Source of the DNA: an uncultured Acidobacteriota bacterium
GTDB lineage: Bacteria; Acidobacteriota; Vicinamibacteria; Vicinamibacterales; UBA2999
NCBI GenBank assembly: GCA_963734635.1
Contig: CAVTIA010000013.1
Span: forward strand, 14,649-78,648
Reading direction: 5' to 3'
Length of the DNA stretch: 64,000 nt
Both the position numbers and the translations under genes were made by a program. This document shows positions 23,960-43,245 of the stretch, one piece after another. How positions within the stretch are numbered: the first letter of the stretch is position 1; each line of letters opens with the position of its first letter. A model generated the notes under the pieces. The model worked only from the letters and a program-made list of their open reading frames with translations. It was not told the DNA's origin and did no database searches.

Positions 23960-23983
23960 CGTAGTGTCCGCCTTCAGGCGGAC
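23960..23983 (+). repeat. REP-like element, copy 2 of the inverted doublet (stem variant GTCCGCC/GGCGGAC, loop TTCA)
   Basis: cgtagtgtccgccttcaggcggac. It overlaps the spurious GTG start of ORF 23964. Confidence 0.85.
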
Positions 23984-23993
23984 CCACAAACTC

Positions 23994-25790
23994 ATGGGAC
24001 ACATCGACAAACGAACACTTCACCTGGCCGTTCTCTTCGCGTTGACAGCGTTGCCTGCTGCCGCGCAGGGTTTTCGGCAGGACATCGTTGTAACCGCGGC
24101 CGCCACCCCCGTCGAGCTTGGCACGGTGACGCGAACGCTGACGGTGATTACCCGCGAACAAATCGAACGACTCCCGGTCAACAGCGTTGCCGACGTGCTG
24201 CGGCTCACGGGATCCGTGGACGTTCGCGCACGGGGTGAGCGCGGCATGCAGACGGACTTCGCGATCCGCGGCGCGAATTTCGGTCAAATGCTCGTCCTTG
24301 TCGACGGCACCCGGCTGAACGACGCACAAAGTGGGCATCACAACGGCGATATCCCCGTGCCCCTCGATGCAGTCGAGCGAATCGAGATCTTGTACGGGCC
24401 CGGTTCGTCATTGTTTGGCGCAGACGCATTCGGCGGCACCATCAACGTGATTACGAGGCGCGATGCGTCCCCAGCCTCGGGCGTGATTCAGGGAGGCAGT
24501 TTCGGCCTCGTTGCCGGGCGCGGTCAGGCCGGTTATACCCGCGGGCTCGTGCGCCAGACGTTCGCCGCGTCGATCGACCGGTCGTCGGGCTTCATGTTCG
24601 AGCGCGGGTTCGCCGCTGCGGGTGTCAGCTCGCGAACGTCGATCGGGAATCGCGGCGGCCTGCTGGTTTCGTATTTATGGAAAGACTTTGGCGCGAATGG
24701 ATTTTATGGGAACGCGCCTTCGCATGAATGGACCAACCAGACGCTGCTGGCGGCAGACCACGGCCTGGGCGCCTGGGCAGGCTGGCAGATGGGCGCCAAT
24801 CTCTCGTATCGAACGCATGGCGACCATTTTCTTTTCGACGTCCGCCGGCCCGGCGTTGCGGAAAACCGGCACAGGACGCATGCCGCGCTCGGCGCCGTCC
24901 GCGCGTCTCGCGGCGTCGGCAGTCGAGCCTCGGCTACGGTGGGCGTCGAGGCGGGTGCCGACTGGGTTCGATCCAACAATCTCGGCAATCATTCGACGAG
25001 CAGGGTGAGCGCGTTTGGTGAGTGGCGTCATGTGCTCAACACGAATACACAGCTCGACGCCAGCCTCCGCGTCGACCATTACACCGAGTTCGGCACCGCG
25101 TGGAACCCCGGGCTCGGCATTGGATGGTGGCCGGTTCCAACCGTCCGCCTGCGCGCATCGACGGGTCGCGCTTTTCGAGTGCCCACCTACACCGAGCGCT
25201 TTTATTCGGATCCGGCAAACTGGGCGCGCCCCGAAGTCGGACCGGAGGCTGCGTGGGCTGGCGAAGGCGGGGCTGACCTGTTCCTGTCGCAGAACTGGAC
25301 GGCCAGCGCCACGATCTTCGGCCGACTCGACCATGACGTGATCGACTGGCTCAGGCCGACCGTTGCCGACCGCTGGCGCACGTACAACATCCGGGATGTT
25401 GATACGGTGGGATTCGAGGTCTCCGTGAAGAGGACGATGAGCAGCGGTTCGTTCGTTCAGGCGGCGTACACGGGTCTCGATGTACAAGCAGACGCCGTTA
25501 CGCAGCTCTCGAAGTACGTCCTCGATTACGCACCGCACTCCGTAGCAGTGGCTGCGTCGATCGATACCCCTGGGGCCCTGCGAGTGGCGCCTCGTCTCGA
25601 ATACAAGCACCGCACGCGATCGACAGGGACAAGCGACTATGCGTTGTTCGACCTTCGCGTCAGCCGCTTGTTCGGCCTCTACGAAGTTCGCCTCGAAGGC
25701 ACCAATCTCGGCAACGCAAGCTACCAGGAGATTGTCGGCGTCGCTATGCCCGGCCGAGCGGTGACCGTCTCAGTCGCGGTCCGTCCGTAG
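23994..25790 (+). CDS. TonB-dependent outer-membrane receptor
   Basis: ATG 23994 gives the signal peptide MGHIDKRTLHLAVLFALTALPAAAQ. Plug region VITREQIERLPVNSVADVLR...IRG, followed by a long beta-barrel. Confidence 0.85.
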   Translation: MGHIDKRTLHLAVLFALTALPAAAQGFRQDIVVTAAATPVELGTVTRTLTVITREQIERLPVNSVADVLRLTGSVDVRARGERGMQTDFAIRGANFGQMLVLVDGTRLNDAQSGHHNGDIPVPLDAVERIEILYGPGSSLFGADAFGGTINVITRRDASPASGVIQGGSFGLVAGRGQAGYTRGLVRQTFAASIDRSSGFMFERGFAAAGVSSRTSIGNRGGLLVSYLWKDFGANGFYGNAPSHEWTNQTLLAADHGLGAWAGWQMGANLSYRTHGDHFLFDVRRPGVAENRHRTHAALGAVRASRGVGSRASATVGVEAGADWVRSNNLGNHSTSRVSAFGEWRHVLNTNTQLDASLRVDHYTEFGTAWNPGLGIGWWPVPTVRLRASTGRAFRVPTYTERFYSDPANWARPEVGPEAAWAGEGGADLFLSQNWTASATIFGRLDHDVIDWLRPTVADRWRTYNIRDVDTVGFEVSVKRTMSSGSFVQAAYTGLDVQADAVTQLSKYVLDYAPHSVAVAASIDTPGALRVAPRLEYKHRTRSTGTSDYALFDLRVSRLFGLYEVRLEGTNLGNASYQEIVGVAMPGRAVTVSVAVRP

Positions 25791-25832
25791 AACCGCCCCA
25801 GCCGCTGTGCGGTTTCGGCAGCAATCTCTCCG

Positions 25833-25906
25833 TCGCACCATCGCACCATCGCACCCTCGCACCGTCGGACGCACCCTCGCCCCCTCGCACCTCGCACCAT
25901 CGCACC
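25833..25906 (-). repeat. about 9-unit tandem array of TCGCACC(N) (GGTGCGA on the minus strand)
   Basis: Units at 25833, 25841, 25849, 25857, (degenerate 25865-25876), 25877, 25885, 25892 and 25900. Ends 1 nt before the aguA stop codon (25908-25910). Confidence 0.9.
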
Positions 25907-25907
25907 G

Positions 25908-26972
25908 TTAGACCGTCTGTACTCGTTGTCGTGCCGGTTCCTGCTGCGTCAGACAATGAATCGTGCCGAGCCCCCACGCGAGATCCACCGCATGGATTCC
26001 GACCACTTTGTGCGACGGCATGAGATCGGCGAGCGTGTTGAGCGCAACACGGTCGTGGGGATCGTTGAAAGTGGGCACCAGGACGACACCGTTCGCGATG
26101 TAGAAGTTGGCGTAGCTCGCTGGCAGACGCATCCCTTCCATGACGACGGGACGCGGAAATGGCAGTTTCACAATTTTCAGAGGGGCGGTTTCGGTGTTTG
26201 CCGATGCAGCGTCGAGTCGCCGCAGGTTGTCCATGGATCGGGCGTGGTTCTCGTCCGAAGGATCCTCTTCGACTGCCAGCACCACAGTGTCTCCACGCAC
26301 GAACCGCGCGACGTCGTCAACGTGCCCGTGCGTGTCGTCACCGACACAGCCTTCGCCGAGCCAGATCGTGCGCCGAATCCCGAGCCATTCCGCGAAGATG
26401 CGTTCGTAATCCTGCCGTCCAAGGCCGGGATTGCGAATTTGCACATCGCTCAGCAGCCATTCCTCAGTAACAAGGAGCAGTCCCTGGCCGTTGACCTCGA
26501 TACCGCCGCCTTCGAGGACGATGCGCTCTCCAGTGTCGGGGCGGACAGGCTCGTGGCGTCCGAGGCCGGTGAGGCGCGCCACGAAGCCGCCCACTTCGAC
26601 GTCGTGCCGCCAGTTCGAATACTTCGCCCAGCCGTTGAACGCCCAGTTCAGGAGGACGACGTCGCCCGCGGCGTCGATCACACCTGTGGGGGCGGAGTCA
26701 CGCAGCCACACGCGGTCCGTGGGCACCAGGTGAAGCGTGACCCTGTCATGCCGCACGTTGTGAGCGTCGAGCGCCACACGCACGCTTTCCATGACCTCGC
26801 GGCTGTGACAGAGAATCTCGAGCGGTTCATGCTCGGCCAGCACGCGGGCGATTTCCGCATACACCCAGGGAATCACGGGCAGCTTGCCGGGCCAATCGGG
26901 TTCGTGATGCGGCCAGGCAATCCACGTCGCACGATGTGGTTCCCACTCGGCAGGCATCCTGAGACGACGCAC
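25908..26972 (-). CDS. aguA: agmatine deiminase
   Basis: MPAEWEPHRATWIAWPH...; C-terminal GTIHCLTQQEP (catalytic Cys). Confidence 0.9.
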   Translation of the reverse strand: MRRLRMPAEWEPHRATWIAWPHHEPDWPGKLPVIPWVYAEIARVLAEHEPLEILCHSREVMESVRVALDAHNVRHDRVTLHLVPTDRVWLRDSAPTGVIDAAGDVVLLNWAFNGWAKYSNWRHDVEVGGFVARLTGLGRHEPVRPDTGERIVLEGGGIEVNGQGLLLVTEEWLLSDVQIRNPGLGRQDYERIFAEWLGIRRTIWLGEGCVGDDTHGHVDDVARFVRGDTVVLAVEEDPSDENHARSMDNLRRLDAASANTETAPLKIVKLPFPRPVVMEGMRLPASYANFYIANGVVLVPTFNDPHDRVALNTLADLMPSHKVVGIHAVDLAWGLGTIHCLTQQEPARQRVQTV

Positions 26973-26973
26973 G

Positions 26974-27891
26974 TTACCGCTCTGTCCCGATGTATCTCTT
27001 CAGGATCGGACCGTACGCATCGACACGCCGGTCGCGCAGGAACGGCCAGTTGCGGCGTGCGTTTTCGATGAGGGCAGGATCGCACCGGGCGATCAGGATT
27101 TCCTCGCCTTCGCCCGCTTCGGTGATATCGCGTCCGAACGGATCGGTGACGAACGAGTGGCCGAAAAAGGTGATGCCGTTCGTGCCGGGCTCATCCTCAT
27201 GGCCGACGCGGTTAGGCGCCGCCACGTATACGCCGTTCGCAATCGCGTGACTACGCTGGATCGTACGCCATGCGTTTACCTGAGCATGCCCCCATTCGTC
27301 CTTTTCCGCCGGATGCCAGCCGATGGCCGTGGGATAGAAGAGTACCTGCGCCCCCATCAACGCTGTAATGCGTGCGGCTTCGGGGAACCACTGGTCCCAG
27401 CAGATCAAGACGCCGATGGTCGCATACCGCGTTTGCCAGACTTTGAATCCACGGGCGTCGCCTGGCTGTTCGCCGTGATAGTCGAAGTGCCCGTCACCAG
27501 GAGTGAAGTAGTACTTCTCGTAATACAGCGGGTCGTCTGGTATGTGCATCTTGCGGTACACGCCGAGCAGGCTTCCGTCGGCGTCGATGATCGCGGCGGA
27601 ATTGCGATAAATACCGGCAGCTTCACGCTCGAAGATCGGGGCGATGACGACGACCCCCAGCTTTTGCGCGGTGGCCTGGATAAGGTCGGTCGTCGGTCCT
27701 GGAATGGTCTCGGCAAGCTCGAAGCGGTCGCACTGCTGTGACTTGCAGAAGTAAAGCGAGTTGAACAGCTCCTTCAGACAGACGATCTGAGCGCCGCGGT
27801 CCGCGGCTTCGCCTATGAGTCGCTGCGCGCGCTTGACGTTGCTCTGCACGTCGCCGTCCGCGTGGTCCTGGACGATTCCAATTGTGAACAT
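26974..27891 (-). CDS. aguB: N-carbamoylputrescine amidase (carbon-nitrogen hydrolase)
   Basis: Nitrilase-superfamily pattern (CLKELF, YRKMHIPDDP, VLICWDQWFPE). Lies directly downstream of aguA with a 1-nt gap. Confidence 0.9.
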   Translation of the reverse strand: MFTIGIVQDHADGDVQSNVKRAQRLIGEAADRGAQIVCLKELFNSLYFCKSQQCDRFELAETIPGPTTDLIQATAQKLGVVVIAPIFEREAAGIYRNSAAIIDADGSLLGVYRKMHIPDDPLYYEKYYFTPGDGHFDYHGEQPGDARGFKVWQTRYATIGVLICWDQWFPEAARITALMGAQVLFYPTAIGWHPAEKDEWGHAQVNAWRTIQRSHAIANGVYVAAPNRVGHEDEPGTNGITFFGHSFVTDPFGRDITEAGEGEEILIARCDPALIENARRNWPFLRDRRVDAYGPILKRYIGTER

Positions 27892-27922
27892 CTGACCCTA
27901 TGCTAGCCTTGCTCACACACGG

Positions 27923-29191
27923 ATGAAAACAAAACCACTGCGCGTTGCGCTCCTCGGTTTCGGTACGGTCGGCGGATCGGTAGCAAGAATTCTGATGGAG
28001 AGACCCGAGCTGGCCGATCGGATTCAGCTCACGCATATTTTCAACCGAGGTGTTGAGAGGAAGCGCGCCGATTGGATCCCGGCGAATGTCGCATGGACCG
28101 AGAACATCGACGAGCTGCTTGCGGCCAAACCGGACGCGGTGGTCGAAGTGGTAGGTGGCGTCGAGCCGGCCGGCACCTGGGTGCGCCGTGCATTGGAGCA
28201 GAGCAGCGCCGTCGTGACCGCAAACAAGATGCTGCTCGCCGCACACGCGCCTGAGCTGCTGCACCTGGCCGCCACGCGCGGCACGCAGCTTCGGTTCGAG
28301 GCAGCTGTTGCCGGCGGCGTGCCGCTGATTCACGGCGTTCGCGAAGGGCTCGCAGGTGATCGTCTCACGCGTGTCGCCGGCATTCTCAACGGCACCTCGA
28401 ATTACGTGTTGAGCAAGATGGCGGAGGAGCACCAGCCGATGAGCGCGGTGCTCGACGATGCGCGCCGGCTTGGCTATGCGGAGGCAGACCCGAGCGCCGA
28501 CATCGACGGCGACGATGCGGCTGCGAAGCTCGTCGTACTGGCGGGAATCGCATTCAGGCGTCACCTTCGCCTCGCGGACATTCCGCGTCAGTCGATCCGT
28601 CCCATTTCGGCTGCCGATTTCCATTACGCGAGGAGCCTCGGGTGCACCATCCGTCAGGTCGCAATGGTGGAGACGAAGGGCGACCGTTTTCACGCCTTCG
28701 TCGGCCCGGCACTCGTGCTGCGCGGTTCGAACTTCGGGCTGAACATGGGTGCGAACAACGTAGTGACTATCTCTGGTCATTACGGGGGCGAGAACAGCTT
28801 CAGCGGTCCCGGTGCCGGTGGTCGCGCCACGGCCGTCGCTGTGGTGTCGGACCTGCTTTCGCTCACGCAACGTACCCAGGACCGAAGCGAGGAGTGGCCG
28901 GCTGGTCAGGTGGCGGCCGCGGCGCCTCGTCCCTACTATCTGCGCTTTGTGGTGTACGACCGACCGGGCATCCTGGCGTCGATCGCCGCGGCGCTCGCCG
29001 GGCAGGGCATCAACCTCGATGCTGTGCTGCAGCAGCCCGGATATCCGAAAGATGCTCTTCCTTTCGTGATCACCGTCGAAGCGTGCGACGAGGCGTCCCT
29101 GACTGCCGCCCTCGATGAGATAGCCCGTTTTGAATTCCACGCCGAGCCTCCGTTGTCACTGCCGATGCTGTTGGGCGACGAGCGGCCGTGA
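27923..29191 (+). CDS. hom: homoserine dehydrogenase
   Basis: LRVALLGFGTVGGSV, NGTSNYVLSKM and a C-terminal ACT domain. Confidence 0.9.
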   Translation: MKTKPLRVALLGFGTVGGSVARILMERPELADRIQLTHIFNRGVERKRADWIPANVAWTENIDELLAAKPDAVVEVVGGVEPAGTWVRRALEQSSAVVTANKMLLAAHAPELLHLAATRGTQLRFEAAVAGGVPLIHGVREGLAGDRLTRVAGILNGTSNYVLSKMAEEHQPMSAVLDDARRLGYAEADPSADIDGDDAAAKLVVLAGIAFRRHLRLADIPRQSIRPISAADFHYARSLGCTIRQVAMVETKGDRFHAFVGPALVLRGSNFGLNMGANNVVTISGHYGGENSFSGPGAGGRATAVAVVSDLLSLTQRTQDRSEEWPAGQVAAAAPRPYYLRFVVYDRPGILASIAAALAGQGINLDAVLQQPGYPKDALPFVITVEACDEASLTAALDEIARFEFHAEPPLSLPMLLGDERP

Positions 29192-29248
29192 TATCTTTTT
29201 TGATTCGTGTCACTTAACAGGGCCAACCGTCCTTCGGGCGACGACCTT

Positions 29249-30157
29249 ATGGTGCCGGCGTCCGTGGGAAACCTCGGCAGCGGCTTCGACACCCTTGCCG
29301 TCGCCCTCCGCCTGTACCTTCGCCTGCGCGTCGTCGACATACGCGACGACGGGGCGGCGACGCTCAACGTTGTGAAGAGTACGCCGCCGGTGGCTGGCAA
29401 AAACGCAGTGGAGCGCGCGTACCAGGCCATTGCGCGCTGGACCGGCCTCAAGGCACCTTCGGTCTTCGTCGAGGCCGAGAGCGACATACCGATGACGGCC
29501 GGCCTTGGGAGCAGTGCGGCTGCCGCGGTTGCAGGATTGCGAATGTTCGAGCGCGTCACCCAGCCGCTGCCGGAGGGCGTCCTTCTTGCGGTCGCGACTT
29601 CCCTTGAAGGTCATGCCGACAATGCGGCTGCGGCACTGCACGGCGGGCTCACGTCGGTCATCGAGCGCGAGAGTGACGAGCCCGTTGCGTTGCGATGGCA
29701 GTGGCCGGAGGACCTTCGCTTCGTTGTCGCCACTCCGTCGGTTGGTCTTTCGACGTCGAAAGCTCGGGCGGCGCTACCGGATTCGCTGTCGCGAAGAGAT
29801 GCCGTGTTCAACTTGCAGCGGGTGCTGTCGCTGGTGCATGCGCTGCAGAGCGGCGAGTACGACCTGCTCCGCGAATCGGTGCGTGACAGATGGCATCAGC
29901 GGGCACGCGCGGCGCTGGTCCCTCAGCTTGGCGAGGTGCTTGCGCTCGAGGATCCCGCGATTCTCGCGTCGTTCCTTTCGGGCGCGGGGCCGTCGGTTGC
30001 CCTCGTTGCGCGCGGCGATTTCGAGCGCCTCGAGCAACTGCTGGCGTCGACGTACGAACGCGCGGCGTGTCCAGTCAGGATCCGAACGCTTGCGGTTCAT
30101 CAATCGTCCGACGTCGCGCGCGAAACGGTCGCTTCGGCACAGGGGAGAAATCGATGA
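29249..30157 (+). CDS. thrB: homoserine kinase
   Basis: MVPASVGNLGSGFDTLAVAL and GLGSSAAAAVAG. The ORF-track start at 29207 is probably upstream of the true ATG 29249. Confidence 0.9.
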   Translation: MVPASVGNLGSGFDTLAVALRLYLRLRVVDIRDDGAATLNVVKSTPPVAGKNAVERAYQAIARWTGLKAPSVFVEAESDIPMTAGLGSSAAAAVAGLRMFERVTQPLPEGVLLAVATSLEGHADNAAAALHGGLTSVIERESDEPVALRWQWPEDLRFVVATPSVGLSTSKARAALPDSLSRRDAVFNLQRVLSLVHALQSGEYDLLRESVRDRWHQRARAALVPQLGEVLALEDPAILASFLSGAGPSVALVARGDFERLEQLLASTYERAACPVRIRTLAVHQSSDVARETVASAQGRNR

Positions 30158-31404
30158 AATTCGTTGCCGGATTGACTTGCCACCTCTGCGGCGCGACGTA
30201 TCCGGCCGAGGCGTTCTGGGTTTGCTCCGGATGCCTCGGGCCGTTGGAAGTGTCGTACGACTACGCCGCAATCCGGAAGACGATCAGCCGGAGCGCGATT
30301 GAATCACGACCTCGTTCGCTCTGGCGCTACCTGGAACTGCTACCCGCCCGCGAGCCGCTCACAGGTTTCAATTCGGGATATACACCTCTCGTTCGTGCGA
30401 CGCGGCTGGCCCGGGAGTTGGGAGTCGCCGATCTGTATCTCAAGGACGACTCGGTAAACCACCCCACGTTTTCCTACAAGGACCGGGTCGTATCGATTGC
30501 GGCGACGCGCGCCGTGGAGCTCGGGTTTCAGGTATTCGGGTGCGCTTCCACCGGCAACCTCGCGGGAAGCGTGGCGGCCCACGCCGCTCGACTTGGCCTG
30601 CCGTGCTACGTCTTCATTCCTTACGATCTCGAGCCCGGCAAGATTCTGGGTGCAGCAATCTACGGACCGCACGTCATTGCGATCGAAGGCAACTATGACG
30701 ACGTGAACCGGCTGTGCACACAGATTGCGGATAGGTACGGGTGGGGCTTCGCCAACATCAACCTTCGCGCGTACTACGCGGAAGGCGCGAAGACGATGGG
30801 CTTTGAAATCGCGGAGCAGCTTGGATGGCGTTTCCCGGATCATGTGGTGTCGCCAGTGGCGGGCGGCACACTCCTGCCGCGCATCTTCAAGGGATTTCGG
30901 GAGCTGCGGGAAGTAGGGCTCGTCGAAGGTGATTTGCCGAAGATTCATGCTGCGCAGCCTGCCGGTTCGGCGCCGGTCATCAATGCACTGAAGGCGGGGC
31001 TCGAGTTTCCGGAGCCGGTGAAACCGAACACGGTTGCAAAGTCGCTGGCCATCGGCAATCCGGCAGACGGATTCCAGGTGGTTCGCGTCGTCAAGGAGAC
31101 CGGAGGCCACGGCGCGGCTGCCAGCGATGCGGAGATTCTCGACGCCGTCCAGCTCCTCGCCAGGACCGAGGGGATCTTCACCGAGCCCGCCGGCGGCACG
31201 ACACTCGCGGTGACGAGAACGTTGATAAACAGCGGGGTGATCAAGCCGAACGAGTCGGTGGTCGTTTGCATTACCGGCAACGGATACAAGACCGTTGAAG
31301 TGATGTCCGATCGTGTAGCCGCGCCTATCCGAATCGGCCGCAGCCTGGCCGAATTCGAGCGTGTTGTGGGGGGTCGGCTGGGGCTTCAGGCCGCCGCCGG
31401 CTGA
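30154..31404 (+). CDS. thrC: threonine synthase
   Basis: ATG 30154 overlaps the thrB stop (ATGA). N-terminal zinc ribbon CHLCG...CSGC. PLP-lysine block HPTFSYKDR. Confidence 0.9.
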   Translation: MKFVAGLTCHLCGATYPAEAFWVCSGCLGPLEVSYDYAAIRKTISRSAIESRPRSLWRYLELLPAREPLTGFNSGYTPLVRATRLARELGVADLYLKDDSVNHPTFSYKDRVVSIAATRAVELGFQVFGCASTGNLAGSVAAHAARLGLPCYVFIPYDLEPGKILGAAIYGPHVIAIEGNYDDVNRLCTQIADRYGWGFANINLRAYYAEGAKTMGFEIAEQLGWRFPDHVVSPVAGGTLLPRIFKGFRELREVGLVEGDLPKIHAAQPAGSAPVINALKAGLEFPEPVKPNTVAKSLAIGNPADGFQVVRVVKETGGHGAAASDAEILDAVQLLARTEGIFTEPAGGTTLAVTRTLINSGVIKPNESVVVCITGNGYKTVEVMSDRVAAPIRIGRSLAEFERVVGGRLGLQAAAG

Positions 31405-31599
31405 CAGCCAGGACCTGGAACCAGGAATCCGGACACAGCACCTTGCCCGATTGGCCGTTTACCCGATACAATTCCCCCATCGTGCGGAAAACGTGTGGTT
31501 GTGAGTGCGCGTGTTGTTGTATGGGAACCAGGGTCCCTGCGCTCTCGGTCCACCGTGTCGGTCGTCTGTAAAACAACCGCAACACGAAAAAGATCGGCG

Positions 31600-31631
31600 G
31601 CCTGGGATGCAATCCCGGGCTTTTTGTTTTT
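31600..31631 (+). terminator. intrinsic terminator/attenuator hairpin plus T-tract, ending 8 nt before the cysG ATG
   Basis: GCCTGGGAT-gca-ATCCCGGGC (9 bp, one G-U pair) followed by TTTTTGTTTTT. Confidence 0.7.
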
Positions 31632-31638
31632 GGGGGGT

Positions 31639-32985
31639 ATGTTTCCAGCATTTCTGAACCTGCGGTCGCGACGCGCCGTTGTGGTCGGCGGTGGTCCCGT
31701 GGCGGCGGGCAAGCTCGAGGCGCTGCTGGCCGCGGGCGCTGCCGTCACCGTGGTGGCCCCGGACGTCCTTCCCGAGATCGATCGTCCGGGAGTGACGGTG
31801 GTCCGCCGACCATTTGAGGACGCGGATCTCGACGGCGCCTGGTGGGTTGTCGCGGCAGCACCCCCTCACGTCAACAGACGCGTGCGCGCCGCAGCTGACG
31901 CTCGGCGCATTTTCGTCAACGCCGTTGACGATCCACTGCACGCGACCGCGTATCTGGGCGGGGTAGTGAAACGGGACGGCGTCACGATCGCGATTTCCAC
32001 CGATGGCCGCGCGCCCGCGCTGTCCGGCCTGCTGCGCGAGGGTATCGACGCGGTGCTCCCTCGCGATCTCGGTACCTGGCTGTCGGCTGCTGACGCCATC
32101 CGGCGAGAGTGGAAAGAGCAGAACGTCCTGATGGAGCGCCGGCGTCCCCAACTGCTCGACGCTTTGAACAAGCTGTACGACGGAAGGGGGAAAGGGGAAG
32201 CCGGAATCCGTTCCCCGAAGCGCGGATTCGTGTCACTGGTTGGCGCGGGTCCCGGTGATCCGGGACTCTGGACTGTTCGCGCATTGCGACGACTCGAGGA
32301 GGCCGACCTGGTCTTGTACGACGCGCTCGTCGACGCAAACGCGCTTCGCCGCACGACCCGGGCCCAGTGCTTCTGTGTGGGTAAGCGCGCGCGCCGGGAC
32401 AGCGTGCCGCAGGAGACGATTCATCGGCTGATGATCCGCGCCGCGAGTCGGGGAAAACGAGTGGTACGGCTCAAAGGCGGCGACCCGTTTGTGTTTGGTC
32501 GTGGCGGTGAGGAAGCACTGGCTCTCGCCATGGCCGGTATTCCATTCGACGTGGTGCCGGGCGTTACTACGGCCGTAGCAGCCCCCGAGTTGGCGGGCAT
32601 CCCGGTGACGCACCGCGGATTGGCATCCGGGTTCCTGGTGATCGCTGGACACACCGCTGCCCAGGTTGATGCTGCCCTCGAAGCGATTCGACCAAATGGC
32701 GTGTCAGTGGTCATTCTCATGGGCGTGAGCATACGGGGGCAGCTTGCTTCGCAGCTGATCGCGCACGGATGGCCGGCCGCAACACCTGCCGCGATCGTCT
32801 GCGATGTCTCGACGCCGAATGAGTGGACATGGACCGGGCGCCTCGACCGAATGGGCGACGCCGAGGCTCCGGCGGGAGCGGCCGGCGTGCTCGTCGTTGG
32901 CGAGGTGGTAAGGATCCGCGAAGCACTGGCCGGCACCGCAGCGGTGAACGACGTCAAGACGGGGTCGGACCCCATTACGAGGTGA
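31639..32985 (+). CDS. cysG: siroheme synthase (precorrin-2 dehydrogenase/ferrochelatase plus uroporphyrinogen-III C-methyltransferase)
   Basis: N-terminus MFPAFLNLRSRRAVVVGGGPVAAGKLEALL. C-terminal SUMT block VSLVGAGPGDPGLWTVRA..ADLVLYDALV. Confidence 0.85.
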   Translation: MFPAFLNLRSRRAVVVGGGPVAAGKLEALLAAGAAVTVVAPDVLPEIDRPGVTVVRRPFEDADLDGAWWVVAAAPPHVNRRVRAAADARRIFVNAVDDPLHATAYLGGVVKRDGVTIAISTDGRAPALSGLLREGIDAVLPRDLGTWLSAADAIRREWKEQNVLMERRRPQLLDALNKLYDGRGKGEAGIRSPKRGFVSLVGAGPGDPGLWTVRALRRLEEADLVLYDALVDANALRRTTRAQCFCVGKRARRDSVPQETIHRLMIRAASRGKRVVRLKGGDPFVFGRGGEEALALAMAGIPFDVVPGVTTAVAAPELAGIPVTHRGLASGFLVIAGHTAAQVDAALEAIRPNGVSVVILMGVSIRGQLASQLIAHGWPAATPAAIVCDVSTPNEWTWTGRLDRMGDAEAPAGAAGVLVVGEVVRIREALAGTAAVNDVKTGSDPITR

Positions 32986-32988
32986 AAC

Positions 32989-34818
32989 ATGGGCGCCATT
33001 GATCATTCGACGGAGGTCGGCCGCGGTCGTCTCTCTTTTGCCGACGAACGGGACATCGACGAATTCGTCGACACCCTCGGCAAGTATGAGCGGGGCGAGA
33101 TTTCAGCCGAGGACTGGCGCAAGTTCCGTCTTCTGCGGGGCACCTACGGGCAGCGTCAGCCTGAAGCTGTCCACATGATGCGCGTGAAGATTCCACAGGG
33201 GGTCCTTACGTCAGCGCAGCTGCGTTCACTCGCGGGCGTCGCGACCAGCTACTCTCGCGGGTTCGCTCACATCACTACGCGGCAGAACGTGCAGCTGCAT
33301 TTCGTGCCGCTCGCGCAGGTCGAAGACGCGATGCGTGCTCTTGCCGACACGGGACTGACGACGCGCGAGGCCTGCGGCAACTCCGTTCGGAACATCACCG
33401 CCTGCCCGTACGCCGGCGTTGCCGAAGGCGAGATTTTCGACGTCACGCCATATGCCGAGGCGATGACCAGGTATTTCCTGCGCCATCCGCTCTCGTCGTC
33501 TCTGCCCCGAAAATTCAAGATCGCGTTCGAAGGCTGCCCTGAAGACCACGCGGTTGCCGCGATCCACGACATCGGGTGGCGCGCGCGAGTGGTGAACGGC
33601 CGTCGCGGTTTTCGCGTCACGGTCGGCGGAGGAACCGCGATTCTCGTGAACACGGGAACGCTTCTTTACGATTTCCTCCCGGTTGAGGAAATGCTCGACG
33701 TCGCCGAGGCGGTCATCCGCGTCTTCCATCGCTACGGCGACAGGAAGCACATGCAGCGGAATCGCATGAAATTCCTCATAAAGTCGCTGGGCTGGGACGA
33801 GTGGCGTGCGCGGTTCGACAAAGCGCTCGAGGAATTTCGCGCTGAAGGGGGAGCGTCGTTGCCGTTTTCGGCCGCCGCGGTGCCGGTGGAGGAGGCGCCC
33901 AGCTGGCCGAAGCCGATTCCGCCGACGCCCAAGATGGCCGCCGCTCTGGCCGAGACGAGCGTCAAGGGTCCGGGGATCGTGCCGGGCAGCGTACGGCTTC
34001 AGACGCTCCCTGATGCGTATGTCAGATGGACCAGGAGCAACGTACAACGTCAGAGGCAGGCGGGCTACGTCTGCGTCACGGCGCGTCTGCCGCTCGGCGA
34101 CTTCACAGCAGGGCAGGCGCAGGTGCTGGCCGATCTCGCCGAAGCCTACGGCGACGGCACCGTGCGATTGAGTATCGATCAGAACGTCATCTTCCGGTGG
34201 GTGCCCGCATCAGCCGTCCAGGGGTTCTACGACCGGCTCGATGCCGCAGGGCTCGCAACGCCGGATGCAGGCACGATTGCGGACGTTACGAGCTGTCCCG
34301 GCGCCGAGACCTGTCGCCTCGCCGTGACGCAGTCTCGAGGATTGGGCCGGTTGCTCATCGAGCACCTGAACGCACATCCCGAACTGGTTGATGCCGTTCC
34401 TTCGGGCGACATCAAGATCAGCGGCTGTCCGAACGGATGCGGCCAGCACCATATTTCCGGAATAGGTTTTCAGGGGAGTGTGCGCAAGCTTGGCGGCCGG
34501 GCAGTGCCGCAATACTTCGTGCTGGTAGGTGGAGGCGTCACAGATGACCGAGCGCATTTCGGCAAGGTCGTGTCAAAAGTGCCGGTGCAGCGGCTCACCG
34601 ACGCCCTCGATCGGCTCGTCAACTTGTATCGGGAACGTCGCGAAGATGGCGAATCGCTTGGAGCCTTCTTCCGGCGGTTGCCGCCAACCGTTGCGACCGA
34701 CGCGCTGAAGGATCTCGCAGAGCTGCGAGCGGAAGACACGGTTCCTGATGACTTCATCGACCTCGGGGAAAGCCAGGCTTTCACGCCCGAGGTAATGGAC
34801 GGAGAGTGCGCCTCGTAG
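32989..34818 (+). CDS. sir: ferredoxin-type sulfite (nitrite/sulfite) reductase hemoprotein
   Basis: 609 aa. Siroheme/4Fe-4S cysteine blocks TSCPGAETCRLA and KISGCPNGCGQH. Confidence 0.9.
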   Translation: MGAIDHSTEVGRGRLSFADERDIDEFVDTLGKYERGEISAEDWRKFRLLRGTYGQRQPEAVHMMRVKIPQGVLTSAQLRSLAGVATSYSRGFAHITTRQNVQLHFVPLAQVEDAMRALADTGLTTREACGNSVRNITACPYAGVAEGEIFDVTPYAEAMTRYFLRHPLSSSLPRKFKIAFEGCPEDHAVAAIHDIGWRARVVNGRRGFRVTVGGGTAILVNTGTLLYDFLPVEEMLDVAEAVIRVFHRYGDRKHMQRNRMKFLIKSLGWDEWRARFDKALEEFRAEGGASLPFSAAAVPVEEAPSWPKPIPPTPKMAAALAETSVKGPGIVPGSVRLQTLPDAYVRWTRSNVQRQRQAGYVCVTARLPLGDFTAGQAQVLADLAEAYGDGTVRLSIDQNVIFRWVPASAVQGFYDRLDAAGLATPDAGTIADVTSCPGAETCRLAVTQSRGLGRLLIEHLNAHPELVDAVPSGDIKISGCPNGCGQHHISGIGFQGSVRKLGGRAVPQYFVLVGGGVTDDRAHFGKVVSKVPVQRLTDALDRLVNLYRERREDGESLGAFFRRLPPTVATDALKDLAELRAEDTVPDDFIDLGESQAFTPEVMDGECAS

Positions 34819-34830
34819 CGGCCTCGTAAA

Positions 34831-34854
34831 CGTAGTGTCCGGCTTTAGCCGGAC
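34831..34854 (+). repeat. REP-like element (singleton) between convergent genes
   Basis: cgtagtgtccggctttagccggac lies 13 nt after the sir stop. Confidence 0.85.
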
Positions 34855-34863
34855 TGAGTCGCG

Positions 34864-35088
34864 CTAGCGCTCCCGGAACCGCTCGATACGCTTCTCTCGT
34901 TCCCGCTGCTGGGCTGCATCCGCGTCGGCGCCTTTGGACGGCGCAGGTCGCGGTTCTTCGGGTGCCGACCGTTTACCACGCGGTTCGCGTTCAACGGTTT
35001 TTCGATTCGGAGGTGTGTTCGTCGGCATGTTGCCCCCGGTGGCGACTGCAGTAACCGCGCCATCGATGACGCGTTGCGGCGTTTCCAT
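34864..35088 (-). CDS. small charged hypothetical protein (74 aa)
   Basis: ORF METPQRVIDGAV...REREKRIERFRER has moderately high GC3. A competing frame (34845..35135) also exists. Confidence 0.3.
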   Translation of the reverse strand: METPQRVIDGAVTAVATGGNMPTNTPPNRKTVEREPRGKRSAPEEPRPAPSKGADADAAQQREREKRIERFRER

Positions 35089-35265
35089 ATCCGTCGCGCG
35101 CTACGTCCCGTGGGGGGCTCGCGTCGCGACACCAACAGAATCAGGGTGCCGCGGCCGATATTGTGACTAGCACAAGTCGGGCTCAGACGCGCAGGCTCCG
35201 CTCGTCAACGATCGCATCGTATCGAGTATCGTAGAAATAGGAGCGCCAGATCCGACTGGCCACAC

Positions 35266-36285
35266 ATGAGCAAGCTGAAAATCATCGTGCTCTACGATCG
35301 CGTCCTCGTTGAGGACGACGACGACCAGGGCTCGAGCGACAAGTCACCGGTGGTACGTACGCTCGACAAGAAAGAGGTCGAAGAAGAAGTCGCAGAGACG
35401 CTGGTAAAGCTTGGACACGAGCCGGTGATGCATGAGCTCGACGGGACCCAGAAGAGCCTGCTCGGCCTCGGTCGCATCGACTGCGATCTCGTGTTCAACC
35501 TGGCCGAGTCGTTCGCAGACGACGACACGTCGGACTTCAAGATCGCCGCGCTGCTGGAGCTCCTCGGCAAGAAGTACACCGGCTCGGGCAGCCATGGGTT
35601 GATGCTCGCGCAGGACAAAGCCGTCGCCAAAAAGATCTTCGCCTTCCACGGTATCCACACGCCCACGTTCGCCAGGTGCTATCGCGGGCGACTTGATTTT
35701 TCCCACGACCTGCAGTTTCCCGTCATCGTCAAACCCGCGCGGGAGGACGGCTCGATTGGCATCGAGTTCAGTGCCGTCGTCAACTCCATCCGGGAGCTGA
35801 TGGAGCGAATGGATTGGCTGCATGCCAACTTCGACTCACCGGTCCTCATCGAGGAGTACATCGAAGGCCGCGAGATGTACGTCGGCATCATTGGAAACGA
35901 CAAGCCCGAAGCGTTGCCGATCATCGAGCTGGATCTTTCCAAACTGCCGGAAGGAACGCCGAGGATTGCTGCGGCGGAAGTGAAGTGGGGGAAGGGAACG
36001 CGGGCGTACCGCGACACGAAATCGGCAATCGCCACGGACCTCGCTGACGAGACCGCGCAGGTGCTCCAGCAGACCGCTGTCGCCGCGTACCAGGCGCTGG
36101 AGCTGCGCGATTATGGACGCGTGGACATGAGGCTTCAGCCGGACGGCACGGTGCAGGTTATCGAGGTGAACCCGAATCCGTGGCTTGCATCACGCGCAGA
36201 GTTCGCCATGGCCGCGCGGAAGTCGGGACGTACCTACACGCAACTGGTAAGCGAAATCGTCGAGCTCGCGCTGGCCAGGGCCTGA
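35266..36285 (+). CDS. D-alanine--D-alanine ligase-like ATP-grasp enzyme
   Basis: ATP-grasp blocks FPVIVKPAREDGSIGI, IEEYIEGREMYV and GRVDMRL...VIEVNPNP. Confidence 0.8.
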   Translation: MSKLKIIVLYDRVLVEDDDDQGSSDKSPVVRTLDKKEVEEEVAETLVKLGHEPVMHELDGTQKSLLGLGRIDCDLVFNLAESFADDDTSDFKIAALLELLGKKYTGSGSHGLMLAQDKAVAKKIFAFHGIHTPTFARCYRGRLDFSHDLQFPVIVKPAREDGSIGIEFSAVVNSIRELMERMDWLHANFDSPVLIEEYIEGREMYVGIIGNDKPEALPIIELDLSKLPEGTPRIAAAEVKWGKGTRAYRDTKSAIATDLADETAQVLQQTAVAAYQALELRDYGRVDMRLQPDGTVQVIEVNPNPWLASRAEFAMAARKSGRTYTQLVSEIVELALARA

Positions 36286-36292
36286 CGTCGGT

Positions 36293-36814
36293 CTATCGGA
36301 TATTCCACCGATACAACGTTCTCGACAATCCATCGGCGCTGGTGAAGACGTCCACCGCGTCGGGCTCCCAATCGCCTATCGCGAAATTGTGCGACACGAT
36401 TCGAGCGCCCGGCCGCAGCATCGCGGTGAGCCGCGGCCGCAGCTTCACGTTGAGGGCGGACACCAGATACAGAGTCACCACGGTTGCATCCGACACGTCC
36501 GTCTCGAGAGCGTCCTGAACTCTGAACGTCACGAGATGTTCCACCCCCGCACGTTTCGCGTTGGCCTGCGCTTCCTCCACACGTAACGGATCGATGTCCA
36601 CTCCGACACCGCGCGTGCCGAATGTCTGCGCCGCAGCGATGACGATCCGACCGTCGCCGCACCCCAGGTCGTACAAAACGTCCTGAGGACCGACGTTTGC
36701 GAGCATCAGCATCCGGCTCACGACGTCCGGGGGTGTGGCGACGAACGGGGGGCGGGGCGGCGCCTGGGCCCACAGAGGCATGGAGAGTAGAAGGAGCGCG
36801 GCGCCCATCGGTCG
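36293..36814 (-). CDS. class I SAM-dependent methyltransferase with signal peptide
   Basis: MRPMGAALLLLSMPLWAQ, then VLYDLGCGDGRIVIAAA...GVGVDIDP. Confidence 0.75.
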   Translation of the reverse strand, partial: RPMGAALLLLSMPLWAQAPPRPPFVATPPDVVSRMLMLANVGPQDVLYDLGCGDGRIVIAAAQTFGTRGVGVDIDPLRVEEAQANAKRAGVEHLVTFRVQDALETDVSDATVVTLYLVSALNVKLRPRLTAMLRPGARIVSHNFAIGDWEPDAVDVFTSADGLSRTLYRWNIR

Positions 36815-37058
36815 CATTTTAGACGCGCCTCCATAGACGGCCGGCATGGGCGAAGCGGCTACGTCCCTATAACGGATCGACTCAAGGTGCTTAGCTCGAC
36901 CGTATCACCGACCATCGCGTCGCCTGCCATCGGACCGCCACAAATGTCGGAAATTGCGAGGTTTACCGGCATCGCGCGATATGTACGGATCGCAGTCGGC
37001 CAATGGTCGAATGACAGGGTTGAAATGCCAAAAACGCCGGTTTTTCGGGCATTTTCGA

Positions 37059-37087
37059 TTGATCGACCTGTATAGGTGCGTTATACT
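37059..37087 (+). promoter_or_regulatory. sigma-70-type promoter for carD
   Basis: TTGATC (37059-37064), 17-nt spacer, TATACT (37082-37087), about 60 nt upstream of the carD start. Confidence 0.6.
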
Positions 37088-37146
37088 CGTGGGTGCGGTT
37101 TCCCGGCACGAACCGGTCCTACCAACCTTCCTTCAACGGGGGAAAC

Positions 37147-37737
37147 GTGACATTCCAGGTCGGCGACAAGGTCATCTACCCGAACCACGGACTCGGCATC
37201 GTCGAACGGATCGAAGAAAAAACTATTTTGGGCACCACGTGCGGTTTCTTTCACCTCCGAATTGTTTCCAATGACACAACGGTTCTGGTTCCTGTGGCGA
37301 ACGTGGACAACGTCGGTCTGCGAAAAGCCATCAGCGACGGTGAAGTCGAGCGGCTGTTCACGCTTTTGAGTGACGGCAGGATCGACAACCACCAGAACTG
37401 GAAGGGCCGCTTCAAGGACAACTCCGATAAGATGCGGACCGGCTCCATCTACGACATGGCGGACGTGCTCAAGAGCCTGACGTTCCTGAGCAAGTCCAAG
37501 AGCCTCTCGTTCCGCGAAAAGCGAATGCTCGATCGGGCGCGCGCTCTCATCGTTTCCGAGGTGTCGGAAGTGATGCGGGAAAAGGCGCTGGAGATCGAAC
37601 AGCGCGTCGATCGCGCGCTCGAAAAATGCTTCATCGTGAAGGTCCGCAACATGACCCGGCAGGCGGCGCGCGCAAAAATCGCCAAGCCGGTCAAGGCCAC
37701 AGTCATCGTCACGCGTCGCGCTGCTCGCGCATCGTAA
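37147..37737 (+). CDS. carD: CarD/CdnL-family RNA-polymerase-binding transcription regulator
   Basis: GGGGGAA upstream of GTG 37147. FQVGDKVIYPNHGLGIVERIEEK... is the CarD_TRCF domain. Basic C-terminal tail. Confidence 0.85.
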   Translation: MTFQVGDKVIYPNHGLGIVERIEEKTILGTTCGFFHLRIVSNDTTVLVPVANVDNVGLRKAISDGEVERLFTLLSDGRIDNHQNWKGRFKDNSDKMRTGSIYDMADVLKSLTFLSKSKSLSFREKRMLDRARALIVSEVSEVMREKALEIEQRVDRALEKCFIVKVRNMTRQAARAKIAKPVKATVIVTRRAARAS

Positions 37738-37766
37738 CGTCGCTCCTCTTGCCTTGCCTTCTTCGC

Positions 37767-37799
37767 CGCCCGGGGGCATGTCCCCCGGGCGATTTTTTT
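37767..37799 (+). terminator. canonical rho-independent terminator after carD
   Basis: CGCCCGGGGG-catgt-CCCCCGGGCG followed by ATTTTTTT. Confidence 0.85.
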
Positions 37800-37886
37800 G
37801 TACCGTATGACCCAGACGTCTTGAATGGCCACATTCCTTACACTCGCCTCGTATGCTCGGCGGTTTGAGGCGCAGCCTCGCTGGTT

Positions 37887-38618
37887 ATGCCCGAGATGGT
37901 CGTAGCTCTTCGCTCGGTCGTCACCTATGCGGTCATCATCGCCTACATCGCGGTCGCCGGACCTCTTGGGCTTTTCATCGGCGTCGTGTTCCGGTGGAAG
38001 CGTGGTCTCTATGCGTTGGGGCACGCCGGAGTGAGTTTGGCGCTGGCCCTCGCGGGAATTCGTTATCGCGTGGTTGGACGCGAGCATGTGCCAGCGTCGG
38101 CGGTGGTCTTCTGCTCGAATCACGAGAGCAATGTTGATCCACCCGTGCTCTTCACGACCCTCCATCCCTATCTGCACATTCTCTATAAAGCGGAGCTGCG
38201 CCAGTTTCCGATCATGAGGACCGTGCTGGACGTCGGGGGATTCGTGCCAATCGAACGGGCCGACCGCGAGAAAGCCGCCGAATCGATTGCGAGAGGCGCG
38301 GAATCTCTACAGGCGGGCAACTCCTTTCTCATCTTTCCCGAAGGCACTCGCAGCCGTACCGGACAGTTGTTACCGTTCAAAAAGGGTGGTTTCATCATGG
38401 CCATCCGGGCACAGGTACCGGTGGTTCCGGTGTCGGTGCAGGGCGGAAGGGCTGCGATGCGAAGAGGAAGCGCCCTTGTACGCCCCGTTCGCGTCAGCGT
38501 GCGAATCGGAAGACCGATTCCAACGACAGGTCTCACCACGGAAAACCGTGATGAACTCATTGCGAAGGTACGAGAGGAGATCGAAACGCTGATGAGACAG
38601 GGATCGCTTTGGAGCTAA
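37887..38618 (+). CDS. plsC: 1-acyl-sn-glycerol-3-phosphate acyltransferase
   Basis: NHESNVDP (HxxxxD) and IFPEGTRS blocks. Confidence 0.85.
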   Translation: MPEMVVALRSVVTYAVIIAYIAVAGPLGLFIGVVFRWKRGLYALGHAGVSLALALAGIRYRVVGREHVPASAVVFCSNHESNVDPPVLFTTLHPYLHILYKAELRQFPIMRTVLDVGGFVPIERADREKAAESIARGAESLQAGNSFLIFPEGTRSRTGQLLPFKKGGFIMAIRAQVPVVPVSVQGGRAAMRRGSALVRPVRVSVRIGRPIPTTGLTTENRDELIAKVREEIETLMRQGSLWS

Positions 38619-39730
38619 CCGCCGACTGAGAACGTCAGCATCCACGGACGAACGGGCGCACCGTCGAACGTGCGGATGCCTTCCAGCAGGTCGACTCTGA
38701 TCGTCCGGTACGGCTCCGACGGACGAGTGAAGCGAATTTCGACGGCACGATTCGCCGCGTCATACGAATACGTGAATTGCAGTGGCGGCTGCTCCGGCGT
38801 CCCCGGCTGCTGGACGTTGGCGCCTACATAGCCCACGCGAATCCGGTCGGCGAGGGACGCAGGATCCAGGCCCCGCGAAAACTGTACGCGGACGTTCCCG
38901 GACTGTGGCACGCCGGTTTCACCTTCCGTGGGGGAGCTGAACACAACTTCCCCAGGCTCGAGCGGTGGAGGTGGCGCAGGAGCGTCATCGTCCGCAGCTG
39001 GTTCCTGGGGCTGTGTGGCTGTGGCGATGGTGGTCCCTGAGATTGCCACCAGCCCACGATCCAACGACACCGTCCCGCTCACCTGCAGCCATCGGCCGGT
39101 ATCTACCCGCGCCTCGACCGACAGATCGAATCCCCGCCCGCGCGGACGGAGGTCCGTCACCCACACGGCTGCGTCTGCCGAGCGCAACACGAAGTCATAG
39201 CGGCTCTTACCAGGCGCACTCGGCTGATCGCCGAACAGGTTGCGCCCGCGGAATTCACCGACGATGGTGACGTTCTGCCCCTCGAACCGCCACGGCTGGA
39301 GCGCCAGCGCGCGGACAGAGGCCGTCGTCGCCAGCTGCGCTTCGGTGACACTCGAGACGTTGAGGACCAGCTCCTCACCCGGACGAGGCCAGCGCTCCGG
39401 ATCGGGCTGGCCCGTGTATGCACGCACACGCGGATCGCCGGGTTCGAGCCGTCCAATATCGATTATCTGACCGCGCACTTCGACGAAGCCGCCACTTCCC
39501 TTGGCGTCAGTCAGGATGAGAGGAATTTCACGCTCGCCGCCGCGAAGCACCAGGCGCGCGTTGCTGCTCTCCACGAGCTCGCCGTGGAGCAGGACGTTCT
39601 GCAGATGAAAGTAGCTCGGAAACTGGTATACGGCTGCGACCGTTGTGGAGCGGCGCACCGCCGTCTGAGTATCCGCGCTGCTGGCGGCAACCAGCAGGGC
39701 GGCCAGGGTCGCGACAAGGCGACGCTTCAC
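38615..39730 (-). CDS. secreted hypothetical protein with C-terminal SbsA-Ig/Big_5-like domain
   Basis: Signal peptide MKRRLVATLAALLVAASSA. C-terminus VVFSSPTEGETGVPQSGNVRVQFSRGLDPASL. Confidence 0.6.
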   Translation of the reverse strand: MKRRLVATLAALLVAASSADTQTAVRRSTTVAAVYQFPSYFHLQNVLLHGELVESSNARLVLRGGEREIPLILTDAKGSGGFVEVRGQIIDIGRLEPGDPRVRAYTGQPDPERWPRPGEELVLNVSSVTEAQLATTASVRALALQPWRFEGQNVTIVGEFRGRNLFGDQPSAPGKSRYDFVLRSADAAVWVTDLRPRGRGFDLSVEARVDTGRWLQVSGTVSLDRGLVAISGTTIATATQPQEPAADDDAPAPPPPLEPGEVVFSSPTEGETGVPQSGNVRVQFSRGLDPASLADRIRVGYVGANVQQPGTPEQPPLQFTYSYDAANRAVEIRFTRPSEPYRTIRVDLLEGIRTFDGAPVRPWMLTFSVGG

Positions 39731-39734
39731 ATGG

Positions 39735-41732: not shown

Positions 41733-42412
41733 TGAACCTTGTGAATCGGCCGAACAAGCGAAGGCAAACGCCCGAACAGGTGTCCGAGCTCACGACGAAT
41801 CGACTTTCGGTTTACTTGCGTTGCCTCAACGAGCTCGACGCGGCCGGTGTTCAGACGATTTCATCGCAGGCCCTAGCCGAACAGTTCAACTTGAACGCTG
41901 CGCAGATTCGGAAGGACCTGGCGTATTTCGGCGAGTTCGGGGTTCGCGGCGTCGGCTACTACGTCAAGGAGCTCCGGCGTCATCTCCGTCAGATTCTGGG
42001 ACTCGACCGACGCCTGCGAGTGGGCATCATGGGCGCTGGAAATCTCGGGCTGGCGCTCGCCGACTACCCCGGCTTCCGTCAGGAAGGCTTCGAGATCGCT
42101 GCGCTGTTCGATATCGCGAACGAGAAAATCGGGCATGAATCGCGCGGCGGTGTACCCATTCACGACATCCGGGAGCTGAAACGGCTCGCGCGGCGCGAAC
42201 GGTTCGACATTGCGGTCATCGCCGTCCCTGCGCACCATGCGCAGCCCGTCGTCGACCAGGTCGTTGATGCAGGGATCAAGGCCATTCTGAACTTCTCGCC
42301 TGGTGCCCTGAAGGTCCCGGTTGAAGTGAAGCTGAAGAGCGTGGATCTCACCGTCTCACTGGAGAGTCTGTCGTTCTATCTCGCGCAGGGGGACCAACAG
42401 AGCGCACCGTAA
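41723..42412 (+). CDS. rex: redox-sensing transcriptional repressor Rex
   Basis: RLSVYLRCL...ISSQALAEQFNLNAAQIRKDLAYFGEFGVRGVGY... then the Rossmann motif VGIMGAGNLG. Confidence 0.85.
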   Translation: MVALNLVNRPNKRRQTPEQVSELTTNRLSVYLRCLNELDAAGVQTISSQALAEQFNLNAAQIRKDLAYFGEFGVRGVGYYVKELRRHLRQILGLDRRLRVGIMGAGNLGLALADYPGFRQEGFEIAALFDIANEKIGHESRGGVPIHDIRELKRLARRERFDIAVIAVPAHHAQPVVDQVVDAGIKAILNFSPGALKVPVEVKLKSVDLTVSLESLSFYLAQGDQQSAP

Positions 42413-42415
42413 AAC

Positions 42416-42506
42416 GGTGCGATAGTGCGATAGTGCGAGGTGCGACGGTGCGGGGTGCGAGGGTGCGAGGTGCGACGGTGCGAAGTGCGAAGGTGCGACG
42501 TGCGGG
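42416..42506 (+). repeat. about 12-unit tandem array GGTGCGA(N)
   Basis: ggtgcgat agtgcgat agtgcgag gtgcgac ggtgcgg ggtgcgag ggtgcgag gtgcgac ggtgcgaa gtgcgaa ggtgcgac gtgcggg. The first unit is the 3' arm of a hairpin (42403-42421) whose loop holds the rex stop. Confidence 0.9.
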
Positions 42507-43002: not shown

Positions 43003-43029
43003 CGGCCCGTGTGGCCCATAGGCGCGTCA

Positions 43030-43245
43030 TCAAGCTCGACGATACTTCCGCCAAGCCATCAGCGCACCTGCAAACATCAGGGTGCTGCCAACGATCTGCT
43101 CGAACGCCCGTTCGCGCACGAACCGCTGCGCAAAGCGGCGAGGCGTCATTTCACGTGCGCGCGCTTCCAGCCGCATCAGCTTGCTGTCGAGATTTGAGCG
43201 CGTCTGGTCTATCTCCGACCGTATGAGATCCGCTTCGCGAACCAT
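43030..43245 (-). CDS. DUF3618-like small membrane-anchored protein
   Basis: MVREADLIRSEIDQTRSNLDSKLMRLE... plus a C-terminal TM segment. It overlaps the upstream gene's end. Confidence 0.55.
   Translation of the reverse strand: MVREADLIRSEIDQTRSNLDSKLMRLEARAREMTPRRFAQRFVRERAFEQIVGSTLMFAGALMAWRKYRRA

Follow-up and report, generated by a model that had tools for sequence, protein, structure and literature searches.

Results

A GGTGCGA array abuts the aguA stop codon

The window, i.e. the whole stretch of DNA that was analysed, comprises 64,000 nucleotides (G000:C13:14649-78648) of the genome of a soil acidobacterium, G000 (6.5 Mb, 63% G+C, 14 contigs). Two convergent genes frame the locus of interest: on the plus strand, a TonB-dependent receptor gene with Plug and β-barrel domains (23964-25790; stop codon TAG, 25788-25790) and, on the minus strand, aguA, an agmatine deiminase-type gene encoding a 354-aa ORF (25908-26972; PAD_porph, E 9e-106). 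A tandem array occupies 25833-25906 between them. Read on the plus strand, it consists of nine TCGCACC(N) units, TCGCACCA TCGCACCA TCGCACCC TCGCACCG TCGGACGCACCC TCGCCCCC TCGCACC TCGCACCA TCGCACC, which Tandem Repeats Finder describes as 9.9 copies of period 8 (score 71). Base 25907 alone separates the array from the TTA at 25908-25910, which is the TAA stop codon of aguA on the minus strand. Read on the G-rich minus strand, the array is a GGTGCGA(N) module with its head at 25906, 1 nt from the aguA stop, and its tail at 25833: exactly four units are followed by an internal landmark, GGTGCGTCCGA (25865-25875; TCGGACGCACC on the plus strand), and then by four more units.

The nine units ending 1 nt before the aguA stop had been reported in a first-pass annotation of this DNA and are recovered here both in the sequence itself and by Tandem Repeats Finder; the convergent arrangement of aguA and the receptor gene, also noted there, agrees with the ORFs and with the domain matches. 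A second GGTGCGA array, likewise announced, was found on the plus strand at 42414-42504, between the stop of a rex-like gene and the next gene; this sibling does not carry the landmark. At 25833-25906 itself, we found neither an ORF inside the array nor a partner arm, and the copy is therefore a solo one. An Rfam scan of 25000-43500 (E <= 1) gave no relevant match. Arrays of other words also occur in the window, at 46149-46189 (AATCCGTA x 5), 47997-48077 (AGTCTTT beside AGACCAA) and 1593-1631 (TAGCTGG x 5).

Composition and folding of the two strands

On the receptor strand, the 74-nt tract contains 41 C and 12 G (55% C, 16% G), and its predicted fold of -6.7 kcal/mol is less structured than that of shuffled sequences (z = +1.2). 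The tract had been described earlier as C-rich, G-poor and rut-like on this strand, and its composition and lack of structure bear this out. On the G strand, a fold-back centred on the landmark exists, with z = -0.4 relative to shuffles. No structure beyond that of shuffles was predicted for either strand or for the intergenic gap as a whole, and a promoter and terminator scan of the gap returned neither an intrinsic terminator nor a promoter consensus.

We considered whether the module might be a G-quadruplex element like the Xanthomonas and Nostoc repeats, acting as a four-stranded fold, either at the DNA level or within the aguA 3’ UTR. The G-rich strand, the four units ahead of the landmark, and a polarity and pairing habit as in Rehm et al. 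2015 (PMC4692102) would all fit such an element. However, the G runs of the module are mostly GG, separated by loops of 5-6 nt, and ViennaRNA with quadruplex terms returned the same hairpin fold (-24.2 kcal/mol), the optimum under this energy model containing no quadruplex. We regard this explanation as highly improbable.

On the tail side of the array, between it and the receptor stop, lies a hairpin (25791-25830) with predicted energies of -12.8 kcal/mol on the plus strand and -16.7 kcal/mol on the minus strand, not better than shuffles. Its core, GAAACCGCACAGCGGC (25801-25816, minus strand), has only three copies in G000, each 12-14 nt behind a GGTGCGA array. The three loci with array and tail hairpin align as one block of about 115 nt, indicating that the block has been copied within this genome. 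We had entertained the hairpin as part of the repeat family at large, an idea that was discarded because its only three copies are all in G000 and none turned up in about 1 Mb of loci from relatives.

A dispersed family with a fixed internal architecture

About 30 arrays of the GGTGCGA word are spread over 12 contigs of G000. Three consecutive units occur 20 times in this genome and a reversed control pattern 0 times, so that the arrays are far beyond chance. They have an architecture in common: a module is 60-75 bases long and is made of about four GGTGCGAN units, a 12-nt landmark, GGTGCGTCCGAN (consensus on the G strand GGTGCGT(C/G/A)CGAN), and then two to four more units. The landmark follows exactly four units in 7 of the 10 landmark-bearing arrays of G000 and in 59 of 94 modules in relatives (63-70%); the latter were fetched by means of the landmark, so its presence in them is by design while its position is not. 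Among units within one mismatch of the word, the only ones scored, each position of the core GTGCGA is 98-99% conserved, and the eighth, spacer base is unconserved at every unit index. Thus, the proposal that the two arrays of the window belong to a dispersed repeat family, beyond local slippage alone, stands. Among the internal units that had been taken as degenerate, TCGGACGCACC turns out to be the conserved landmark of the family.

By the titles of the contigs that were fetched, the family was placed in Vicinamibacterales (Acidobacteria subdivision 6), more than 100 arrays having been read in other genomes of this order. Its distribution is patchy and in bursts, the array pattern being present in 24 of 121 genomes of the same family. 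Match counts reach 107 in G018, 87 in G095, 71 in G045 and 44 in G106, with 20 each in G000 and G062 and 0-2 in the four congeners of G000. Canonical GGTGCGA modules were also seen on contigs labelled ‘uncultured Bifidobacteriaceae ERP125453_co2_124’ and ‘Candidatus Dormibacteria S2_bin.43’ (L031, L075 and others; L024); these copies reflect either mis-binning or a wider spread of the family. A full-text search of the literature for GGTGCGA returned primers only.

All but three of the G000 arrays are intergenic. The exceptions lie in frame within ORFs (G000:C3:395933-395968, C4:81951-82001 and C11:4472-4510), all on the antisense strand and with lengths that are multiples of three, so that they appear to be translated as low-complexity peptide. 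Counting all words of period 7-8, G000 holds 529 arrays that do not overlap and have 3.5 copies or more, in more than 15 word families, the largest being GGGGATC (45), CCGGGAT (28) and AGCTGGT (27). Period 7 outnumbers both period 6 and period 9 about fivefold (455 arrays of period 7 against 92 of period 6).

Arrays come and go at orthologous gene junctions

The receptor/aguA junction is syntenic in G001-G004, G006 and G007, and the GGTGCGA array is absent from it in all six. In G004, the receptor and aguA ORFs overlap; in G003, they are separated by a 7-nt gap, and two unit-like words lie mostly within its own aguA tail; in G001, G002 and G006, unrelated hairpin repeats occupy the junction. 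Comparison of the filled with the empty receptor/aguA site showed neither a target-site duplication nor sharp ends, and the trinucleotide AAC that precedes heads in G000 is not common to relatives and was therefore not taken as a target site. The C-terminal tail of aguA (25911-25935 of the window), downstream of ...QQEPAR, differs in each relative, which suggests that the last aguA codons may be replaced at each remodelling of the junction.

At three more array sites of G000, the gap between the genes measures 0-27 nt in two or more relatives. A different word fills two of these three sites in one sister species each, as a CTCCGTG array in G002 and a CGGATCGTT array in G004. These two arrays lie at the C8 and C12 junctions, where the G000 arrays (G000:C8:95322-95385 and C12:177619-177695) occupy the space between genes of the same direction and the presumed operon mRNA would contain the C-rich strand. 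The gain and loss of arrays at the sites checked identify gene junctions as places where word arrays come and go; site-specific conservation was seen at none of the junctions compared. The copy behind aguA is a species-specific insertion, and we saw nothing to suggest that it has its own function.

Could the arrays be plain microsatellites, arising by replication slippage of a 7-8-nt unit in place, with copies related to one another by mutational bias only? Unit numbers vary, 7- and 8-nt periods are mixed, higher-order periods of 15 nt occur, the presence of arrays differs among congeners, and heptamer arrays as such are very common in G000. At the G000:C13:92145 junction, moreover, short GGTGCGA arrays are also present in G006 and G003, beside a native GGTGCGA word in the downstream gene, and local nucleation may have occurred there. 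Against slippage in place stand the landmark GGTGCGTCCGA, preceded by exactly four units in most of the modules that bear it, in different genera, the copying of array and hairpin as a block to three loci, and two observations described below, namely the strict polarity of inverted pairs and the flanking of one protein clade by the GGTGCGA word in five to seven genera. We therefore consider it unlikely that slippage alone made this family.

Modules have a polarity relative to genes and to each other

We defined the head of a module as the 5’ end of its G strand and examined the gene context of 107 modules from relatives, using our own codon-usage gene caller, in which start codons are approximate. 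The head adjoins an ORF boundary in 88 of the 107 modules and the tail in 34 (Fisher p = 6e-14, related genomes not being independent). Fifty heads lie within 60 nt after a same-strand stop, at a median distance of about 7 nt, and 38 lie beside the start of an opposite-strand gene. Where modules form inverted pairs, the pairs are without exception arranged heads-out: 65 cases (59 paired modules in relatives and 6 in G000) as against 0 heads-in.

The first-pass annotation had proposed that GGTGCGA arrays follow a rule of sense orientation after a stop codon. Taking all modules together, 50 have a stop at the head, against 11 with one at the tail; this bias stems mostly from the heads-out inverted pairs. 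Solo arrays alone give 25 against 16 (p = 0.21). Thus, the rule is the known habit of the repeat class described by Rehm et al., strong for pairs and weak for solo copies.

These orientations bear on a second alternative, that of a directional Rho loading site, in which the C-rich strand would act as a rut to halt receptor read-through or antisense transcription and the G-rich sense strand would spare aguA. The tract has the composition and the open structure for it (55% C, 16% G; -6.7 kcal/mol, z = +1.2), the gap is devoid of an intrinsic terminator, and where both neighbours are close and point the same way, the coding strand is the G strand in 17 cases and the C strand in 5 (p = 0.017). Yet the array is not conserved at the orthologous junction, and the stop orientation of solo arrays is 25 against 16. 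The arrays at G000:C8:95322 and G000:C12:177619 are C-rich inside co-directional pairs, and where heads adjoin gene starts (38 of 107) it is the C-rich strand that lies on the coding side ahead of the gene. Rho loading as the reason for the array is, in our judgement, improbable.

In relatives, the arrays flank a small PF05635 gene

All eight PF05635 genes of G000 were examined, together with ten in G018, G007 and G006. Complementary 7-8-nt arrays flank 14 of these 18 genes, with a word that differs from gene to gene. In two cases, the flanks are GGTGCGA and TCGCACC: an intact gene at G018:C13:19045-19341 and a frameshifted one at G007:C11:18945-19115. A family-wide search with the G018 protein as query retrieved proteins of at least 70% identity in G070, G045, G088 and G067, and a copy with an internal stop in G041. 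GGTGCGA and TCGCACC arrays lie on opposite sides of the gene in G018, G070, G045, G088 and G067, and in degenerate form also in G041. An intact clade gene thus sits between a G-array and a C-array in five genera, with broken copies in two more; paralogues at about 50% identity have other octamer words. Flanking genes are clearly homologous only for G067 and G007 (G045 and G007 have one in common, at 30% identity), so that the cassettes recur in different neighbourhoods. The first-pass annotation had stated that its interpretation would fall if the motif turned out to be part of a longer mobile element with its own ends; this is in part what we find, since those of relatives form the arms of a longer, gene-carrying cassette.

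We found the clade in 6 of the 24 genomes with arrays and in 1 of the 97 without them (p = 2e-4, related genomes again not being independent). The family-wide protein search found no cognate clade gene in G000 or in three other array-rich genomes, G095, G106 and G062. The cassette proteins match TIGR02436, ‘four helix bundle protein’, and PF05635 is regarded as Avd-like (PMC10053308). Their only solved sequence relative is PDB 2GSC, XCC0516 of Xanthomonas campestris, itself a PF05635 protein. Table S2 of Rehm et al. 2015 (PMC4692102) places GGGAATC repeat #15 across the start codon of XCC0516, a position on which the authors do not comment. In our literature search on S23p/PF05635 and heptamers, only the Coxiella intervening-sequence paper and one paper on diversity-generating retroelements came up, neither of which states a link between array and protein. 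Beside the PF05635 gene of G018, and inside its GGTGCGA arms, there is also a MazF/PemK-like ORF, recognised by motif by eye (L156, G018:C13:17545-20841, flipped 1860-2250).

A third alternative is that the arrays are functional as words: GTGCGA would be a putative site for an Avd-like four-helix-bundle protein or another reader, and the array an RNA or ssDNA cis element under selection. The free spacer base and the fixed count of four units argue for word-level constraint of this kind. A spacer left free at every unit index beside a core that is 98-99% conserved is not predicted by plain master copying followed by neutral decay, and thereby hints at selection on the word and at a function; the conserved four-unit count with its landmark, and the co-occurrence of protein clade and word across genera, point in the same direction. 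The turnover of arrays at orthologous sites, and the failure to find the cognate gene in G000 and the three other array-rich genomes, speak against it. We hold that such a role for the arrays is doubtful, about as much so as slippage in place.

Discussion

A probable solo arm of a cassette family

The interpretation that we favour is that the tract at 25833-25906 is a solo, non-autonomous arm of a cassette family, recently gained at an insertion-tolerant junction and probably without a function of its own. It builds on what was directly observed: a family with an architecture and a polarity, an orthologous site that lacks the array, and the cassette as seen in relatives. The module would be a dispersed element specific to Vicinamibacterales, of which the window holds a single-arm, gene-less copy. 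The complete form of the family would be a hairpin cassette made of a G-array, a small PF05635/TIGR02436 (Avd-like) gene and a complementary C-array, with the heads pointing outwards, and gene-less pairs and solo arms would be its non-autonomous derivatives, as MITEs are to insertion sequences. The copy behind aguA would have arrived within the lineage leading to this species, between convergent genes that in relatives overlap or lie just a few bases apart, and the entire present 3’ flank of aguA would consist of the array and the small hairpin copied along with it. Dispersal would have been by copy-and-paste and dependent, now or once, on the cassette. Any effect at the aguA locus would then be a by-product: the aguA mRNA would have a G-rich 3’ UTR, and read-through from the receptor gene would meet C-rich sequence without structure. 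The locus does have a rut-like strand and a G-rich 3’ UTR, but their importance may be incidental.

Dispersal by the cassette is unproven, given that the cognate gene was not found in G000, G095, G106 and G062. It also counts against the favoured interpretation that a four-helix-bundle protein is not a known transposase. The lack of a target-site duplication and of sharp ends at the aguA junction, the free spacer beside a nearly invariant core, and the GGTGCGA units of G006 and G003 at the G000:C13:92145 junction likewise tell against it.

More tentatively, we propose that word arrays and PF05635/TIGR02436 (S23p, Avd-like) proteins may form one system. Each protein clade would read, and perhaps spread or maintain, its own 6-7-nt word; the gene would travel between two inverted arrays, and solo arrays would be satellites. 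We would put this below an even chance, as a possibility that the free spacer and the fixed four-unit count keep alive. If true, a single account would cover the long-standing puzzle of the heptamer repeats in cyanobacteria and Xanthomonas, the intervening sequences of 23S rRNA that carry an ORF, and the unassigned role that Avd-like proteins have where they are not part of diversity-generating retroelements.

Taken alone, the window tract is an ordinary, recent and dispensable insertion. The family is more informative than a microsatellite would be, with its fixed inner architecture, its strict polarity and a cognate cassette found in five to seven genera in different neighbourhoods. The puzzle of why some bacteria are full of 7-nt repeats just behind their stop codons thereby becomes a pairing that can be tested at the bench, one small protein with one word. 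The family also matters for annotation, in that its modules provide or displace start and stop codons and take up space between genes that would otherwise adjoin.

Comparison with known systems

The cyanobacterial STRR heptamers are a case related to the Xanthomonas and Nostoc repeats. With rut sites, the window tract has in common a length in the 70-80 nt class and a C-rich, G-poor and unstructured sequence on one strand, a likeness of composition only; it differs from them in that the site is not conserved and its sequence is that of a dispersed repeat. Like MITEs and REP/BIME elements, the family has short gene-less copies that outnumber the gene-bearing ones and that occur as inverted pairs; it is intergenic, often located behind stops, and distributed among relatives in patchy bursts. 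Paired GGTGCGA copies have inverted arms. As far as was seen, no transposase or RAYT accompanies them, comparison of filled and empty sites revealed no target duplication, and the cognate gene encodes a four-helix bundle and not a known transposase. Unlike in REP/BIME elements, the arm is a tandem word array and not a palindrome, its two strands folding at z = -0.4 and +1.2 relative to shuffles.

ORF-bearing intervening sequences of 23S rRNA are known in Coxiella and Leptospira, their ORF being S23p (PMC4990558). In that of Coxiella, the 5’ arm contains the heptamer GACAGAT three times in tandem (PMC4990558). As in the GGTGCGA cassettes, a gene of the PF05635 family lies within terminal inverted repeats that form a long stem. 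The GGTGCGA cassettes, however, are located between protein-coding genes and not in helix 25 or 45 of 23S rRNA, and their arms are whole word arrays; the window copy, for its part, carries neither gene nor partner arm.

The closest known kind is that of the dispersed G-rich heptamer repeats GGGAATC of Xanthomonas and GGGGAYT of Nostoc (Rehm et al. 2015; PMC4692102). The GGTGCGA unit differs from these in being 8 nt long with a free eighth base and in having G runs of 2, not 3-4, with no predicted quadruplex. Its arrays contain a conserved 12-nt landmark, and a cognate gene cassette has been identified for it, whereas none is discussed by Rehm et al. In both, tandem words of the 7-nt class occur genome-wide and are mostly intergenic (here, about 30 arrays on 12 contigs), array length varies between relatives, and four units are preferred. 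The 5’ end of the G strand lies near a neighbouring ORF, whichever the direction of that ORF, as does the head of the window copy, 1 nt from the aguA stop. Both also often form convergent inverted pairs, the GGTGCGA family having 65 heads-out and 0 heads-in, with the window copy as a solo member.
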